Of a stretch of 16,792 nucleotides of DNA, positions 2,144-14,674 are shown piece by piece (positions within the stretch are counted from its first letter, which is position 1; each line of letters begins with the position of its first letter). Origin of the DNA: Pseudomonadota bacterium (lineage in GTDB: Archaea; Thermoplasmatota; SW-10-69-26; JACQPN01; JAJPHT01); contig JAJPHT010000018.1 of NCBI GenBank assembly GCA_021325135.1, forward strand, positions 1 through 16,792, written 5' to 3'. The position numbers and the translations under genes were made by a program. The notes beneath the pieces were generated by a model. That model was given only the letters and a program-made list of their open reading frames with translations. It ran no database searches and was not told the origin of the DNA.

Positions 2144-2780
2144 GCGCGCCCGCGGCGAGGAGGACGAGCTTGCCTCGCGCCTGCTCCTCTCGGCTGCGGT
2201 CCAGGCGGCGGGGCTCGCGGTGGGCGTGCGCGTCGTCCTCACCGGCGGTACGGCGGCCGACTTCTACGCGGCCGGGACGCTGGGCACCAGCGAGGCCTAT
2301 CCCGCCCTGTGGCGCCCCAGCGCCGACGTGGACGTCGTGGTGCTCGCCATCGAGCCCTACAAGCCGGCCCGCGACCTCATGCTGCGCGAGCTGGAGCGCA
2401 TGGGCCTCAAGCCCCGCTGGTCCGCGGGCACGGCGCGCGCCATCGACGTGCCCGACTTCCCTTTCCTCCTGGAGATCGTCGGCGAGGAGCTTGGCGTGGG
2501 GCGCGACGAGCGCCCCATCACCGTCCTTCTCGACGGCACGATCCCGCTGACCGTCCGCTCGCCTGAGGACGTGATCCTCGCCTACGCGGAGTCGGGCTGG
2601 CACCTCCGGCACGGCGGCGACTGGACGCGGGCCCTCGCGGTGTACGCGGCCATGAGGGACCGTCTCGACCTCGAATACCTGCGCGACGAGGCTGCGCGCC
2701 GGAGGCAATCCGCGCCCCTTGACGCCGTGATGGCGCTGCGCCCTTCGCCCTGGCGCTTTGCCGCGCCGGAGGACGGATGA
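2106..2780 (+). CDS. Pol-beta-superfamily nucleotidyltransferase (AbiEii/DUF6036-like), putative toxin
   Basis: VVLTGGTAADFY...RPSADVDVV matches the GG-T-A...R-x-S-x-D-h-D motif of AbiEii/MenT-like NTases, followed by SPEDVIL and a helical C-terminus (DRLDLEYLR). Confidence 0.75.
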   Translation: MSRGADDAASLLERARGEEDELASRLLLSAAVQAAGLAVGVRVVLTGGTAADFYAAGTLGTSEAYPALWRPSADVDVVVLAIEPYKPARDLMLRELERMGLKPRWSAGTARAIDVPDFPFLLEIVGEELGVGRDERPITVLLDGTIPLTVRSPEDVILAYAESGWHLRHGGDWTRALAVYAAMRDRLDLEYLRDEAARRRQSAPLDAVMALRPSPWRFAAPEDG

Positions 2781-3820
2781 CCCAGGCCCCCGCCCTGCGC
2801 GTGCCGCTGCGCGACGCCGAGCGCGTGCGCCGCGCGTTGCTCGACGAGGGCGCGCTGCGGCACGACCTCAAGGTGCGCCGCGAGTCGGGCGAGCTTCTGC
2901 TCCCGCTCCTGGACGGCGCGCCGCGCATGGGCTACCCGGTGGCGGTCGCGGAGTTCGAGCCCGCGGACGACTCGCCGCGCCACTACTCGGACCTCCTCGC
3001 GCACCTGCCCGAGGCCGAGCGCGCGCTGCTGCCCTCCGCGTTCGACGTGGTGGGGCACGTGCTCATCGTGAAGGTCCCCGACGCGCTGCGGCACCGCGAG
3101 CGCGAGATCGCGCAGGCGCTCCTGGAGGCGACGCCCCGCGTGCGCACGGTCGCGCAGGACGAGGGCGTCGCGGGCGAGCTTCGCGTGCGCGCGCTGCGCG
3201 TGCTGGCGGGCGACGCGGACACGCGCACGGAGCACGCAGAGCACGGCGTCCGCATCCGCGTCGACCCCGCGACGTGCTACTTCTCGCCGCGCCTCGCCAC
3301 GGAGCGCATCCGCGTCGCGCGCCTCGTCTCGCCCGGCGAGCGCGTCGTGGACCTCATGGCGGGCGTCGCGCCCTTCGCGCTGGTCATCGCGAAGCACTCG
3401 CAGGCCGCGCGCGTGGACGCCGTGGACCTCAACCCGGAAGCGGTCGCCTTCGCGCGGGAGAACGTGGCGCTCAACAAGGTGGCCGACCGCGTGTTCCCCG
3501 AGCAGGCGGACGCGCGCGCGTGGAGCGCCGCGCACCCGGGCGTCGCGGACCGCGTCATCACCAACCTGCCGCACACGGCGCACGCGTTCCTGGAGGACGC
3601 GCTGCGCGTGCTCCGGCCCGGGGGCGGCGCGTGGCACTACCACTGCATCCAGGCCGAGGAGGACCTGGGGCGCCACCTGGCGGAGCTTTCCGCGCGGGCC
3701 CACGAGGCGGGGCGGGGCCTCCGCGTCAGCGCGACGCGCGTCGTGCGCGCGTACTCGCCCCGGGAGCGGCACTTCGCCGTGGATTTTGAGGTGGGTGCGC
3801 CCGCGGAGGATGAGGGGTAA
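2777..3820 (+). CDS. trm5: tRNA (guanine37-N1)-methyltransferase, Trm5/Met-10+ family
   Basis: LPSAFDVVGHVLIV, YFSPRLATERIRV, VDLMAGVAPF (SAM motif I), DLNPEA, DRVITNLP, VRAYSP. ATGA overlap with the upstream gene. Confidence 0.88.
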   Translation: MTQAPALRVPLRDAERVRRALLDEGALRHDLKVRRESGELLLPLLDGAPRMGYPVAVAEFEPADDSPRHYSDLLAHLPEAERALLPSAFDVVGHVLIVKVPDALRHREREIAQALLEATPRVRTVAQDEGVAGELRVRALRVLAGDADTRTEHAEHGVRIRVDPATCYFSPRLATERIRVARLVSPGERVVDLMAGVAPFALVIAKHSQAARVDAVDLNPEAVAFARENVALNKVADRVFPEQADARAWSAAHPGVADRVITNLPHTAHAFLEDALRVLRPGGGAWHYHCIQAEEDLGRHLAELSARAHEAGRGLRVSATRVVRAYSPRERHFAVDFEVGAPAEDEG

Positions 3821-3836: not shown

Positions 3837-3959
3837 CGTTCGGCCGCGCCGCAGCGCGGCCAAAAGCGGGGGTTTCAGGGGGCGCAGCCCCCTGACGTGA
3901 AGGAAAAGTCCAGCAGACGACCGAAACGTCAGGGGGCTGCGCCCCCGAACCCCCGCTTT
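3837..3959. repeat. REPIN/MITE-like palindromic element, copy 1
   Basis: Arms AAAGCGGGGGTTTCAGGGGGCGCAGCCCCCTGACGT (from 3863) and ACGTCAGGGGGCTGCGCCCCCGAACCCCCGCTTT (to 3959) around a 27-nt spacer; near-identical to the reverse complement of 12261-12386. Confidence 0.9.
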
Positions 3960-5061
3960 AGGCCGTGACCTTCCACGTTCCCGAGATCGTGAAGGGCTGG
4001 TCCATGGGGTTCGCGGTGGCCCAGCCCGCGGCGGCCCACGTGTCGGGGATGTAGGCGCGCACGGCGAGGCGATAGCCCGCCGGGAGGGTGACCTTGGGGA
4101 CGTCGACCTTGAGCGGGCTCTCTCCCGAGGCGCCGCCCAGGCCGAAGCTGTTCTTGTCGTTCGTCGCGTAGACGAAGTAGCCCAGCGTCTGCGTGGCGGG
4201 CGTGGCGGCGGTCCATTCCATGGTGAGGGTCGCGCTCATGGGCTTGCCGGTGAAGGTGGGCTGGTCGAGGTTCTTGAAGGCCACGCCGGGGGGCGCGTCC
4301 TGGCATCCGACGAAGGTGACGCACGGCTCGACGAAGGTCGGGAAGGAGCCCTCGAACTTGTAGGGGACGTCCTTGGTCGCCGGCTCGGGGAGAGCCTCGA
4401 CCTGCGCGGCGCCCTTCAGCTCGAAGGGGACGTCGCCCGGGTTGGCGACCACGCCGCCCGCGGGCGTGATCTCGCCCTGGGAGAGCGAGTAGACGTAGAG
4501 GATCACCATCTGGTCGGGGCCCACGTCCGTCGGGGGGAGGGTGAGCGTCACCGGCGAGTCGCCCGCCTTCTCGGCCAGGACCTTGAAGCTCCCGGGGGCC
4601 TCCAGCAGGGCCTCGACGGCAAGCTGCTGGGGCGCGGCGCCGGAGGGCGTGAAGGTGAGCGTCACCGAGCCGCCCGTGAGCCGCCCGGTGAAGGCGAGCA
4701 CCTTGTTGTTGGCCGTCCTGGGGCTCGTGGGGGCGTCCGTGCCGTCGCAGAAGCCGTAGGCGGGCGTGAAGCCGCAGGCGGTGACCCACGTCGCGGCCGT
4801 GCCCTTGATGGAGATGGGGATGGAGGAGGCGACGGGGGTGCTGCTCCCGTTCAAGGCAGGGGCGGGGGAGCCCGAAGGGTCCGAGGGGCTCGCGGAGGAG
4901 GACGACGGGGGCGTCGGCGCGCTGCCGCCTCCGGGGGCGGGCGTCGCGCTGGTGGGCGCGTCTCCGGCGGAGGCGGTCTGGACGGGCTTGGACGGGGCGG
5001 CGGAGCAGCCGGCGAAGGCGGCGCTGGCGAGCAGGACGATGGCGACGAGCACGGGCCTCAT
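3958..5061 (-). CDS. Predicted lipoprotein with Pro/Ser linker and two repeated beta-rich domains
   Basis: MRPVLVAIVLLASAAFAGC lipobox; P/S/T-rich linker; duplicated motifs GDSPVTLTLP/GESPLKVDVP and ANPGDVPFELKG/ANPMDQPFTISG. Confidence 0.85.
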   Translation of the reverse strand: MRPVLVAIVLLASAAFAGCSAAPSKPVQTASAGDAPTSATPAPGGGSAPTPPSSSSASPSDPSGSPAPALNGSSTPVASSIPISIKGTAATWVTACGFTPAYGFCDGTDAPTSPRTANNKVLAFTGRLTGGSVTLTFTPSGAAPQQLAVEALLEAPGSFKVLAEKAGDSPVTLTLPPTDVGPDQMVILYVYSLSQGEITPAGGVVANPGDVPFELKGAAQVEALPEPATKDVPYKFEGSFPTFVEPCVTFVGCQDAPPGVAFKNLDQPTFTGKPMSATLTMEWTAATPATQTLGYFVYATNDKNSFGLGGASGESPLKVDVPKVTLPAGYRLAVRAYIPDTWAAAGWATANPMDQPFTISGTWKVTA

Positions 5062-9210: not shown

Positions 9211-9313
9211 GCTCACCGAGGGCGGCTTACCCCGGGTCCCATTTTAAGGTTTGCGTGGGCGGGGCCTCCCGAGCGGGATGAGGGGCTCTCCTTGTCTTTC
9301 CTGTCACGTCTTG

Positions 9314-9388
9314 ACGCGACGACGCCACGACGCGACGAACGGAGAAACAGAGGGTTCCCTCGTCCGTTGCGTCGTGGCGTCGTCGCGT
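9314..9388. repeat. Long hairpin with 8-nt periodic arms
   Basis: ACGCGACGACGCCACGACGC (9314-9333) is the perfect inverted complement of 9369-9388; about 8 more imperfect pairs extend inward. Confidence 0.85.
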
Positions 9389-9444
9389 TGAGGGGTGACC
9401 AAGAAGGAGAACACCAGCGGACCCAGAGGGACGGAGGGAACCCC

Positions 9445-11426: not shown

Positions 11427-11479
11427 GCGGCCGCATCAAGGCGGCAACCCATATATCCGTGCGGCCCATGGCCCGCGCG

Positions 11480-12247
11480 ATGCGAGTCCTCCTCGTCGGG
11501 TGCGGAGCCCTGGGCGGCGCCATCGCGCACGGCGTCACGAAGATGCACGGCGCAAGCCTCGTCGTCCACGACGTCGACCACGCCAAGGCCGTGAAGGTCG
11601 CCCGCGAGACGCTGGCCCCCGTCGTCAAGACGCTGGAGGAGGGCCTCGCGGGGGCGGACCTCGTGGTGGAGGCCGCGAGCCAGGCGGCCCTCAAGGAGAT
11701 CGCCCCCAAGGTGCTGGGCAAGGGCATCCCCCTCGTGGCGCTCAGCGTGGGCGCCTTCGGCGACGCGCCCTTCCTCGACGCCGTGACGCGCCTCGCGCAG
11801 GAGAAGAAGACGCGCATCCTCGTCCCCAGCGGCGCCATCGGCGGGCTCGACGCGCTGCGCGCAGCGGCCGAGGCGGGCCTCGACGAGGTGACGCTCGTCA
11901 CCGCGAAGCCCCCCGAAGGGTTCGGCCTCCACGGCGTCCACGAGCCGCGCGTCCTCTACGAGGGCCCCGCCCGCGAAGCCGTCGCCAAGTTCCCCAAGAA
12001 CGTCAACGTCGCCGCCGCGCTCTCGCTGGCGGGCATCGGCTTCGAGAGGACGCAGGTGCGCATCGTCGCGGACCCCGCGCTCAAGGCCAACACGCACACC
12101 ATCGTCGCCAAGGGCGCGTTCGGCGAGATGACCTGCCGCGTCGAGAACCGCCCCTCCCCCGAGAACCCCGCATCCTCCCACCTCGCCTCCCTCGCCGCGC
12201 TCGCGCTGATCCGACGCTTCGTGAGCCCGGTGCAGGTGGGGACCTGA
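11480..12247 (+). CDS. nadX: L-aspartate dehydrogenase
   Basis: Rossmann VGCGALG, VVEAAS, LSVGA, VPSGAIGGLD, KPP, YEGPAREAVAKFPKNVNVAAALSLAG, NTHTI, ENRPSPENPASS. CATATAT at 11450-11456; divergent from nadC. Confidence 0.95.
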   Translation: MRVLLVGCGALGGAIAHGVTKMHGASLVVHDVDHAKAVKVARETLAPVVKTLEEGLAGADLVVEAASQAALKEIAPKVLGKGIPLVALSVGAFGDAPFLDAVTRLAQEKKTRILVPSGAIGGLDALRAAAEAGLDEVTLVTAKPPEGFGLHGVHEPRVLYEGPAREAVAKFPKNVNVAAALSLAGIGFERTQVRIVADPALKANTHTIVAKGAFGEMTCRVENRPSPENPASSHLASLAALALIRRFVSPVQVGT

Positions 12248-12260
12248 AAGGCGGAGGGCA

Positions 12261-12386
12261 AAAGCGGGGGGTTCGGGGGGCGGCAGCTCCCCTGACGTTT
12301 CGGTCGTCTGCTCGACGTTCCTTCACGTCAGGGGGCTGCGCCCCCTGAAACCCCCTCGGGTAGCCGCGCTGCGGCGCCGCCGAACG
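12261..12386. repeat. REPIN/MITE-like palindromic element, copy 2 (inverted relative to copy 1)
   Basis: AAAGCGGGGGGTTCGGGGGGCGGCAGCTCCCCTGACGT-TTCGGTCGTCTGCTCGACGTTCCTTC-ACGTCAGGGGGCTGCGCCCCCTGAAACCCCC...GCCGCGCTGCGGCGCCGCCGAACG; aligns to the reverse complement of 3837-3959. Confidence 0.9.
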
Positions 12387-12404: not shown

Positions 12405-13148
12405 CTACGCCGGCGCCGGCATCACGAGCCGCAGCAGCGCGAAGATGAGATCGCCCACGAGGAACGTGGCGACGAAGCCCAGCAGGAGCGGGATCATGAA
12501 CGGGATCTTGGGGGACACCCAGACCTTCTCCTCGCCCAGGGCCTGCACGCGGGCGAAGGTGGCCTCGACCTCCTCCTCGCTCATGCGCGACGCCATGAGG
12601 CGCGTCCTGCGGGAGCCGTCCTCCTCCACGACCTCCATGGGCCACGCGTGGCCGCGGCGCACGTCCTTGGCCTTGCGCTTGACGCCCAGGAAGAGGTGCG
12701 GAAAGCGCGCGTGGCCGTGGGCGAGGTTCCAGACGGCCAGCGAGAGGGGGATCGCAAGGAAGAGGAGCAGGCTGTCGCCCAGCACCGTGAACGCTCCAGG
12801 GAGCGGGCCCGCCAAGGGGGGGACGCCCTCGGCCAGCGCGAGGGGGAAGGGCACGAGGAGCGCCATCGCCATGAGGGCCTTCGCGTCCGCGCCGCCCGCG
12901 ATGAGGCCGAACCACCACATGGCGTAGATGGCGACCGCGAAGCCGGGGATGAAGACGAGGTAGGGCCACCGGCCCAGGACGTCCGAGGGCTCGAAGGCGA
13001 GCTGCGCGGCCAGCGCGACGAGGCCCACCAGCGCCATGACGACCCAAAGGACGTTGGGCGCGCGGCGCCAGCGCCAGTCCGTGTACGCCGCGAACGCGAG
13101 CAGCGTCGTGCCGGCGAGGAGGCGCAGCAGGTCGAGGACCGGGACCAC
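12405..13148 (-). CDS. Archaeal prepilin/preflagellin peptidase, A24 family (FlaK/PibD-like)
   Basis: AAYTDWRWRRAPNVLW (Asp1), GGADAKALM (GxGD-type Asp2), C-terminal KVWVSPKIPFMIPLLLGF typical of archaeal A24 peptidases. GTG start inferred. Confidence 0.9.
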   Translation of the reverse strand: MVPVLDLLRLLAGTTLLAFAAYTDWRWRRAPNVLWVVMALVGLVALAAQLAFEPSDVLGRWPYLVFIPGFAVAIYAMWWFGLIAGGADAKALMAMALLVPFPLALAEGVPPLAGPLPGAFTVLGDSLLLFLAIPLSLAVWNLAHGHARFPHLFLGVKRKAKDVRRGHAWPMEVVEEDGSRRTRLMASRMSEEEVEATFARVQALGEEKVWVSPKIPFMIPLLLGFVATFLVGDLIFALLRLVMPAPA

Positions 13149-14495: not shown

Positions 14496-14618
14496 GGGGG
14501 CTGCGCCCCCTTTCCCCCGCCACAACCCGAACCCACGAACCACCGGACCAAAGGAAGACCGTGGTCCGGTGGTTCGTGGGTTCGGGTTGTGGCGGGGGTC
14601 TGGGGGACGGTGTCCCCC
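14496..14618. repeat. 37-bp perfect hairpin flanked by outward-facing REP-like units
   Basis: 14514-14550 CCCCCGCCACAACCCGAACCCACGAACCACCGGACCA, 11-nt loop, exact inverse at 14562-14598; flanked by GGGGGCTGCGCCCCC (14496-14510) and GGGGGACGGTGTCCCCC (14602-14618). Confidence 0.9.
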
Positions 14619-14674
14619 GGCAGGAAAGATATCAAAAAAGAGGGGGCGCGAGCCCCCGGAAGGCCATCAGCGTC

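Follow-up and report, generated by a model that had tools for sequence, protein, structure and literature searches.

The stretch at 3837-3959 raises the question of what kind of element a compact, strongly palindromic repeat between two archaeal genes represents: a mobile repeat of the REP/REPIN kind, the remnant of an ordinary insertion sequence, or a structured RNA kept by its host. It lies in a window of 16,792 nucleotides, which is one whole contig (C22) of the 3.77-Mb, 51-contig genome G000 (71.6% GC), a MAG that is 94% complete. The contig can be assigned to an archaeon because of the domains found in the genes flanking the repeats (Trm5, archaeal A24 peptidase). Two near-identical copies are present in opposite orientation, copy 1 at 3837-3959 on the plus strand and copy 2 at 12261-12386 on the minus strand, sharing 89% identity over 123 nt (BLAST, E 4.1e-38). 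The gene calls bear out the first-pass annotation in placing each of them between convergent genes. Copy 1 is flanked by trm5 (2777-3820, plus strand; Pfam TRM5-TYW2 and Trm5_N) and by an ORF of 367 aa (3958-5061, minus strand), whose initial label, lipoprotein, has no Pfam support. Copy 2 is flanked by an aspartate dehydrogenase gene (11459-12247, plus strand) and by a minus-strand gene carrying the archaeal A24 peptidase C-terminal domain, with its stop at 12405. A tRNA scan returned none, and Rfam gave no match at curated thresholds, the permissive matches being generic long hairpins (miRNA precursors) far below threshold.

Copy 1 can be dissected into four parts on the plus strand. An outer tail module (3837-3861) starts with a CGT(T)C head (3837-3841), followed by an 8-bp GC stem (3842-3849 with 3854-3861) closed by a CGCA loop (3850-3853); it folds as a separate hairpin in both the DNA fold and the RNA centroid. 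The left unit (3862-3898), which belongs to the type referred to below as A, consists of the linker AAAAGC, G5, TTTCA, the mini-hairpin GGGGGCGCAGCCCCC (3878-3892) and the head TGACGT (3893-3898). Its GCGCAGC core fits the GCGNAGC motif, which forms unusually stable DNA mini-hairpins (PMC13037366, PMC3201870). An asymmetric spacer of 27 nt (3899-3925) comes next, the right half of which, CAGCAGACGACCGAA, contains invariant columns and is conserved across copies. The inverted right unit (3926-3960) comprises the head ACGTCA, the mini-hairpin GGGGGCTGCGCCCCC (3932-3946), GAA, C5 and the linker GCTTT, and its last three nucleotides, TTA (3958-3960), are the TAA stop codon of the minus-strand gene 3958-5061. 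The predicted fold of copy 1 reaches -100.6 kcal/mol as RNA and -60.3 kcal/mol as DNA, with a z-score of about -10.5 in both cases.

Copy 2 (about 12260-12386, minus strand) has the same layout. Its tail (12362-12386) has a stem with one mismatch and one G-T pair and is followed by the linker TACCCGA. The type A unit places its mini-hairpin at 12331-12345 and its head at 12325-12330, the spacer of 26 nt occupies 12299-12324, and the right unit consists of a head (12293-12298), a degenerate mini-hairpin (12275-12292), GAA, C6 and GCTTTT. Thus, the main features recognised at the outset are present in both copies, namely inverted arms of about 36 nt with the GGGGGC-GCA-GCCCCC mini-hairpin and an asymmetric spacer of 26-27 nt.

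Throughout the genome, the family is built from a unit of about 30 nt, which contains an outer run of five to six G, then TTC or TTTCA, a mini-hairpin made of G5-6, a loop and C5-6, and an unpaired head TGACGT (CGTC on the other strand). Three unit types can be distinguished: type A (G5-TTTCA-G5-CG(C/A)AG-C5), type B (G6-TTC-G6-CG(C/A)AG-C5) and type C (G6-TTTCA-G6-CTCG-C6). The core GCG(C/A)AGC occurs in 87 of 135 scored units. The inner stem comprises 5-7 G-C pairs around a loop of 3-5 nt; an A-T first pair is found in types A and C only, and there is no CCA. Two such units are joined head-to-head across a spacer, usually of 25-28 nt, to give a doublet. We found 81 doublets with spacers of 21-30 nt, and in all doublets the ACGTCA and TGACGT heads point at the spacer. 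Copies agree in the right half of the spacer (CAGACGA...) and have a few variants of its left half; the asymmetric 26-nt spacer is common to about 70 loci, and a second spacer type contains CTGATCAG. Unit types are not distributed at random over the doublet, since the left position prefers A and the right position B and C; heterodimers are formed, as in BIMEs.

The tail, described in the first-pass annotation as a one-sided part of the element, has to be redefined as an optional outer hairpin module, with a CGTC(GTC) head on its outer side, an 8-bp GC stem without A-T pairs and a 4-nt CGCA loop. When the copies are oriented by their spacer, 30 have the module on the left alone and 12 on the right alone; another 14 have one on each side, and 16 have none. 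Some copies carry further units beyond the tail, resulting in mosaics of up to 245 nt, and both solo units and multi-unit mosaics exist in G000.

A search of the whole genome with BLAST and iterated nhmmer yielded 99 non-overlapping matches in 90 loci on 33 contigs, so that the two copies in the window belong to a high-copy family, as had been predicted from the window, and are far from being its only members. In addition, the genome contains 310 hairpin units of the G5..C5 form, compared with 59 for the reversed C5..G5 control, and 138 of the 310 carry the CGTC head. For the exact centre of the tail hairpin, 119 occurrences were counted; 79 stand beside family elements, and the remaining 40 are, for the most part, apparently chance matches within coding regions.

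The hairpins of the family are kept by compensatory change. Since a MAFFT alignment misaligns the differences in G-run length, compensatory changes were counted directly on the extracted units. Four versions of the outer tail stem exist, each perfectly complementary (GGCC/GGCC, 23 copies; GCGC/GCGC, 12; GGCG/CGCC, 8; CGCC/GGCG, 6), which are compensatory double changes, and the outer and inner G-runs are equal in length in 116 of 135 units. Within a doublet, the loop type of one arm does not predict that of the other (identical in 14 of 56 cases versus 15.5 expected). Because of this, and because unit types prefer certain positions, it is the local hairpins and the unit types that are conserved rather than perfect pairing along one long rod. 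No two copies in G000 are identical, the nearest neighbours sharing 0.8-0.92 identity, and there is consequently no sign of recent or current activity. The strong conservation of hairpin and head could alternatively reflect a function for the host.

To place the elements relative to genes, we wrote a codon-usage gene caller for G000, which called 3712 genes covering 87.6% of the genome as coding sequence. Nearly all loci (88 of 90) are intergenic, and the other two overlap a gene end, a class to which no background applies. Between convergent genes we counted 43 loci (639 such gaps genome-wide), between genes of the same direction 42 (2382 gaps) and between divergent genes only 3 (640 gaps). 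The enrichment between convergent genes suspected from the two window copies is therefore a property of the whole family (43 of 88 loci versus 17% of gaps, binomial P 1.5e-11), and divergent gaps are depleted (binomial P 1e-4). In tandem gaps, the median distance from the core is 29.5 nt to the upstream stop and 93 nt to the next start. The elements insert at the extreme 3' ends of genes and often replace the native stop codon: 53 genes have their stop codon inside an element or within 6 nt of one. In 22 of these, the reading frame enters an arm and ends at a TGA located 19-39 nt into it, in most cases the one in the TGACGT head; the proteins thereby gain a short repeat-encoded C-terminus, about eight residues in most and of the GGSGGEAP kind. 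Examples of loci with such C-termini are 36889-36989 on contig C50 and 16965-17068 on contig C11 of G000. Another 15 genes use a TAA at the element edge (28% versus 7.2% genome-wide, P 3.5e-6), including the minus-strand gene 3958-5061, to which copy 1 supplies this codon. The orientation of the elements relative to the upstream gene is 23:11 (P 0.058) and shows no relation to local GC skew (P 0.56). The outer linkers are A-rich in 57% of ends, so that GCTTT(T) follows the arm in both reading directions. A consensus terminator scan, which requires 5 T in 8, found none at copy 1.

Comparison with related genomes showed that the family is narrowly distributed. BLAST searches of 40 relatives gave 22, 4, 1 and 0 matches in four other species of the same genus and one weak match elsewhere. 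The motif GGGGGCG(A/C)AGCCCCC occurs 115 times in G000 and 9 times in the sister species G002; none of the 299 further genomes searched in the phylum has more than 4 occurrences, and controls are near zero. Among 185,579 species representatives, from which the window's own or very near records were perhaps left out, the exact doublet core gave one stray match, in Tabrizicola; on inspection of the sequence this match was taken as chance. No exact doublet core was found in viral contigs, and BLAST gave no match in plasmids.

Within the genus, the family behaves as DNA gained and lost between sister species, with filled and empty sites in both directions. The orthologous trm5 site of G002 is empty, and the convergent genes abut there. 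Conversely, at the sites of four G002 elements (on contigs C64, C21, C54 and C123), the gene ends of G000 overlap or are 30-80 nt apart, and in one case both species have an element at the same gene end, though of different construction. The G002 elements have the tail and the left unit in common with those of G000, while their recurrent spacer type is their own. These species-specific spacers and non-orthologous positions point to separate amplification in each lineage; the G000 family has been amplified within this species at positions unlike those of the sister species. In the G002 element at the gene end filled in both species (L050; contig C101 of G002, about 2540-2720), an inserted stretch of some 70 nt interrupts the loop of a G5..C5 mini-hairpin, a hint that such loops can be targets of insertion. 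Across the filled and empty pairs, the flanking genes share about 80% identity and the gap itself is unalignable; no target-site duplication was seen in these pairs. Tail-less copies have no direct repeat at their ends and show short palindromic extensions only. A metagenome scan for close Trm5 relatives returned sequences of only about 35% identity, which are too distant for checking target duplication.

As a check, the first-pass annotation suggested looking for a RAYT or IS200-like TnpA gene, or another nuclease gene, flanked by the units. The Y1_Tnp domain (PF01797) has no match in the 94%-complete G000, while control genomes are positive. Likewise, the Pfam models for the TnpB Zn-ribbon and the IS630-type DDE_3 domain found nothing in this assembly and responded in control genomes. 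At 94% completeness of the MAG, the absence of a transposase gene carries little weight. One rve-like match is weak and falls below the Pfam cut-off. The assembly's only DDE_Tnp_1 (IS4/IS5-type) gene (C27:19461-20753) is single-copy and has foreign or atypical codon usage; neither a family motif within 2 kb to either side nor, by short-word BLAST, clear terminal inverted repeats were seen, and it was rejected as the parent of the family. Nor is a nuclease or transposase gene flanked by the units, and no head-to-head inverted arm pair encloses an ORF. The genes bracketed by two elements or units encode a molybdopterin oxidoreductase, SRP54, a dehydrogenase, a response regulator, an isochorismatase and a Roadblock protein, together with four small ORFs without a Pfam match; being mainly housekeeping genes with no shared candidate, they were discarded as a source of the enzyme.

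Four PDDEXK_3 genes (GxxExxY; PF13366) are associated with palindromes of a different kind, namely 9-nt-periodic inverted repeats, and no arm or tail of the family lies within 400 nt of them. The arms of the family differ from the inverted repeats around these four genes, and the idea that the family is a palindrome cassette of a GxxExxY nuclease is not supported. A link of another sort is present in the window. A composite at 14496-14612 (no strand assigned) consists of two G5..C5 units without the CGTC head, arranged tail-to-tail around a 9-nt-periodic palindrome (14506-14606). The arms of this palindrome are 45 nt long, with a 9-nt periodicity (AACCCGAAC CCACGAAC CACCGGACC...), and it is a copy, lacking a gene, of the inverted repeats around one PDDEXK_3 (GxxExxY) gene (C30:27056-27591). 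The C30 palindrome occurs in 17 copies in the genome, and five of the 16 gene-less ones, including 14496-14612, are flanked tail-to-tail by G5..C5 units.

The window contains two other palindromes. The solo mini-hairpin GGGGGCGCGAGCCCCC (14641-14656, no strand assigned), one of the 310 G5..C5 units, stands after an A-rich run 18 nt downstream of the stop codon of a ribonucleotide reductase gene (14675-, minus strand), and is probably a single REP-like unit of another subfamily. The palindrome at 9303-9399, between two minus-strand genes, has arms of 46 nt that are 80% complementary, a 5-nt loop and a CGACG/CGTCG-rich sequence, and is unrelated in sequence to the doublet family.

Several known systems resemble the family in part. 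In enterobacteria, BIMEs are mosaics of REP/PU types with fixed linker motifs, and their function is defined by the binding of IHF, gyrase or Pol I. The present family is similar in having unit subtypes (here A, B and C) with preferred positions, alternating orientation, few linker motifs and optional modules. However, there is no sequence relation and the host is an archaeon.

A REPIN consists of two inverted REP hairpins around a short spacer (Bertels & Rainey, PMC3116915; bioRxiv 10.1101/2021.07.10.451892), and it was this architecture, as mobilised by RAYT transposases, that the first-pass annotation recognised at the locus. The comparison holds for the inverted doublet of short palindromes and for its high copy number: as in the REPIN-RAYT system, an inverted doublet of about 100 nt has been copied to tens to hundreds of extragenic sites within a confined lineage. 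It fails for the partner enzyme and the head. As no RAYT gene is detectable and the head reads CGTC instead of GTAG, the doublet family is not a member of the REPIN-RAYT system. Moreover, the family has no identical copies, and its spacer is conserved within the species, whereas the spacer is the most variable part of REPINs.

The CGTC head recalls the CGTC-tagged REPs, which were described by Di Nocera et al. (2013) from five bacterial phyla only and have stems of 8-9 bp with A-T first pairs, loops of 4-5 nt and a CCA tail (PMC3733652). In both cases, short GC-rich hairpins carry an unpaired CGTC at one end, most dimers are head-to-head and heterodimers of subtypes occur. The elements also share their location downstream of ORFs, between convergent or same-direction genes, as well as their species specificity and the lack of a known dedicated transposase. 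In contrast, the inner unit of the archaeal family has a G/C stem of 5-7 bp, a loop of 3-5 nt, an extra outer G-run and no CCA, and the combination of an 8-bp stem and a 4-nt loop is present only in the outer tail module. Because stem, loop and tail differ in these details, the family lies outside the published CGTC families. A full-text literature search for REP elements in Thermoplasmatota found nothing. The MITEs of archaea (Sulfolobus, Halobacterium, Haloquadratum) derive from identifiable insertion sequences, whose terminal repeats and target duplications they retain, and all archaeal MITEs given in the review concerned are IS-derived (PMC10969869). The family is comparable to them as a set of small non-coding repeats presumed to move in trans, but it is made of REP-like hairpin units, and neither a parent IS in the assembly nor a duplication was seen. 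Overall, the family, with its CGTC-tagged head, is best read as new for archaea and as distinct from REPIN-RAYT.

Taken together, we consider it likely, with a probability of roughly 70%, that the repeats at 3837-3959 and 12261-12386 belong to a REP/BIME-like, non-autonomous, lineage-specific family of mobile palindromic DNA. The copied entity would be the head-to-head doublet around its 25-28-nt spacer, optionally together with outer GC-hairpin modules and further units. By analogy with RAYT and IS200-type enzymes, which act at REP hairpins, the elements may move in trans, with an enzyme recognising their hairpins in single-stranded form and cutting at or near the CGTC head. Copies would then survive only where promoters and coding sequence stay undisturbed.

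The most substantial of the other explanations is that the doublet has been selected by the host as an RNA element, being part of the upstream gene's transcript and kept for its function as a two-way terminator or 3'-end stabiliser. Nearly all loci lie behind the 3' end of a gene, the predicted hairpin is very stable and conserved by compensatory change, and the A-rich outer linkers at 57% of ends would provide GCUUU(U) after the hairpin in both directions; bacterial REPs are likewise placed behind ORFs and are thought to act as RNA (PMC3733652). However, the T-run is missing at about 40% of ends, and the simple terminator scan was negative at copy 1. The orthologous genes of the sister species do without the element, and native stop codons have been overwritten by it. 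The presence of one 26-nt spacer at about 70 loci, along with species-specific spacer types, indicates copying and not convergent selection. Selection for an RNA function is thus unlikely to be what the family is primarily about, and such a role can coexist with mobility as a secondary use. The elements may secondarily serve the flanking messengers as two-way 3'-end hairpins; the data can be explained without this. A variant of the RNA explanation holds that the elements are small structured RNA genes with their own function, independent of the neighbouring genes. The stable fold and the compensatory changes would suit this proposal, which nevertheless appears very improbable: the elements stand in both orientations relative to their neighbours, belong to no Rfam family (generic hairpin matches far below threshold only), overlap stop codons and coding ends, have arm loops that vary independently, and are not conserved in position between species.

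It is also conceivable that the family is an ordinary MITE, that is, an internally deleted DDE insertion sequence moved by the transposase of a parent that is missing from the assembly. In favour of this, the element as a whole forms one long inverted repeat, and assemblies frequently miss insertion sequences, this MAG having a completeness of 94%. Tail-less copies often have TA at their junctions, and element edges show an excess of TAA stops. Yet the ends are variable and modular instead of being fixed terminal repeats, and solo units and multi-unit mosaics exist. Target-site duplication was seen neither in the diverged filled/empty pairs nor at the tail-less copies. There is no IS630-type gene in the assembly, the sole DDE_Tnp_1 gene has no family motif within 2 kb, and only 2 family matches lie near contig ends. 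We therefore regard a MITE origin as quite unlikely, and return to a REP/BIME-like family mobilised in trans as the preferred reading.

One bolder form of this reading is that the family is an archaeal REPIN-like replicator that does without a RAYT/HUH transposase, whose GCGNAGC/CGTC hairpin units would be copied via single-stranded DNA by a different enzyme. The small PD-(D/E)XK 'GxxExxY' nucleases are one candidate, their palindromes being fused to the same G5..C5 units in this genome. In our view, this proposal is unlikely; if true, it would represent a new class of partnership between a repeat and an enzyme.

REP and REPIN sequences are among the most abundant non-coding repeats of bacteria and serve as a model for long-lived replicators inside genomes. 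An archaeal family with the build, placement and turnover of REPs, but without the bacterial transposase, implies that either this design arose twice or another enzyme drives it. With about 90 loci in one species, about 20 in one sister species and few or none in others, the family offers a defined system in which to hunt for that enzyme. At the same time, dozens of genes have had their stop codon and the codons just before it rewritten by elements, which will mislead gene callers and assemblers in these high-GC archaea, and gene callers will report the repeat-encoded C-termini as real.
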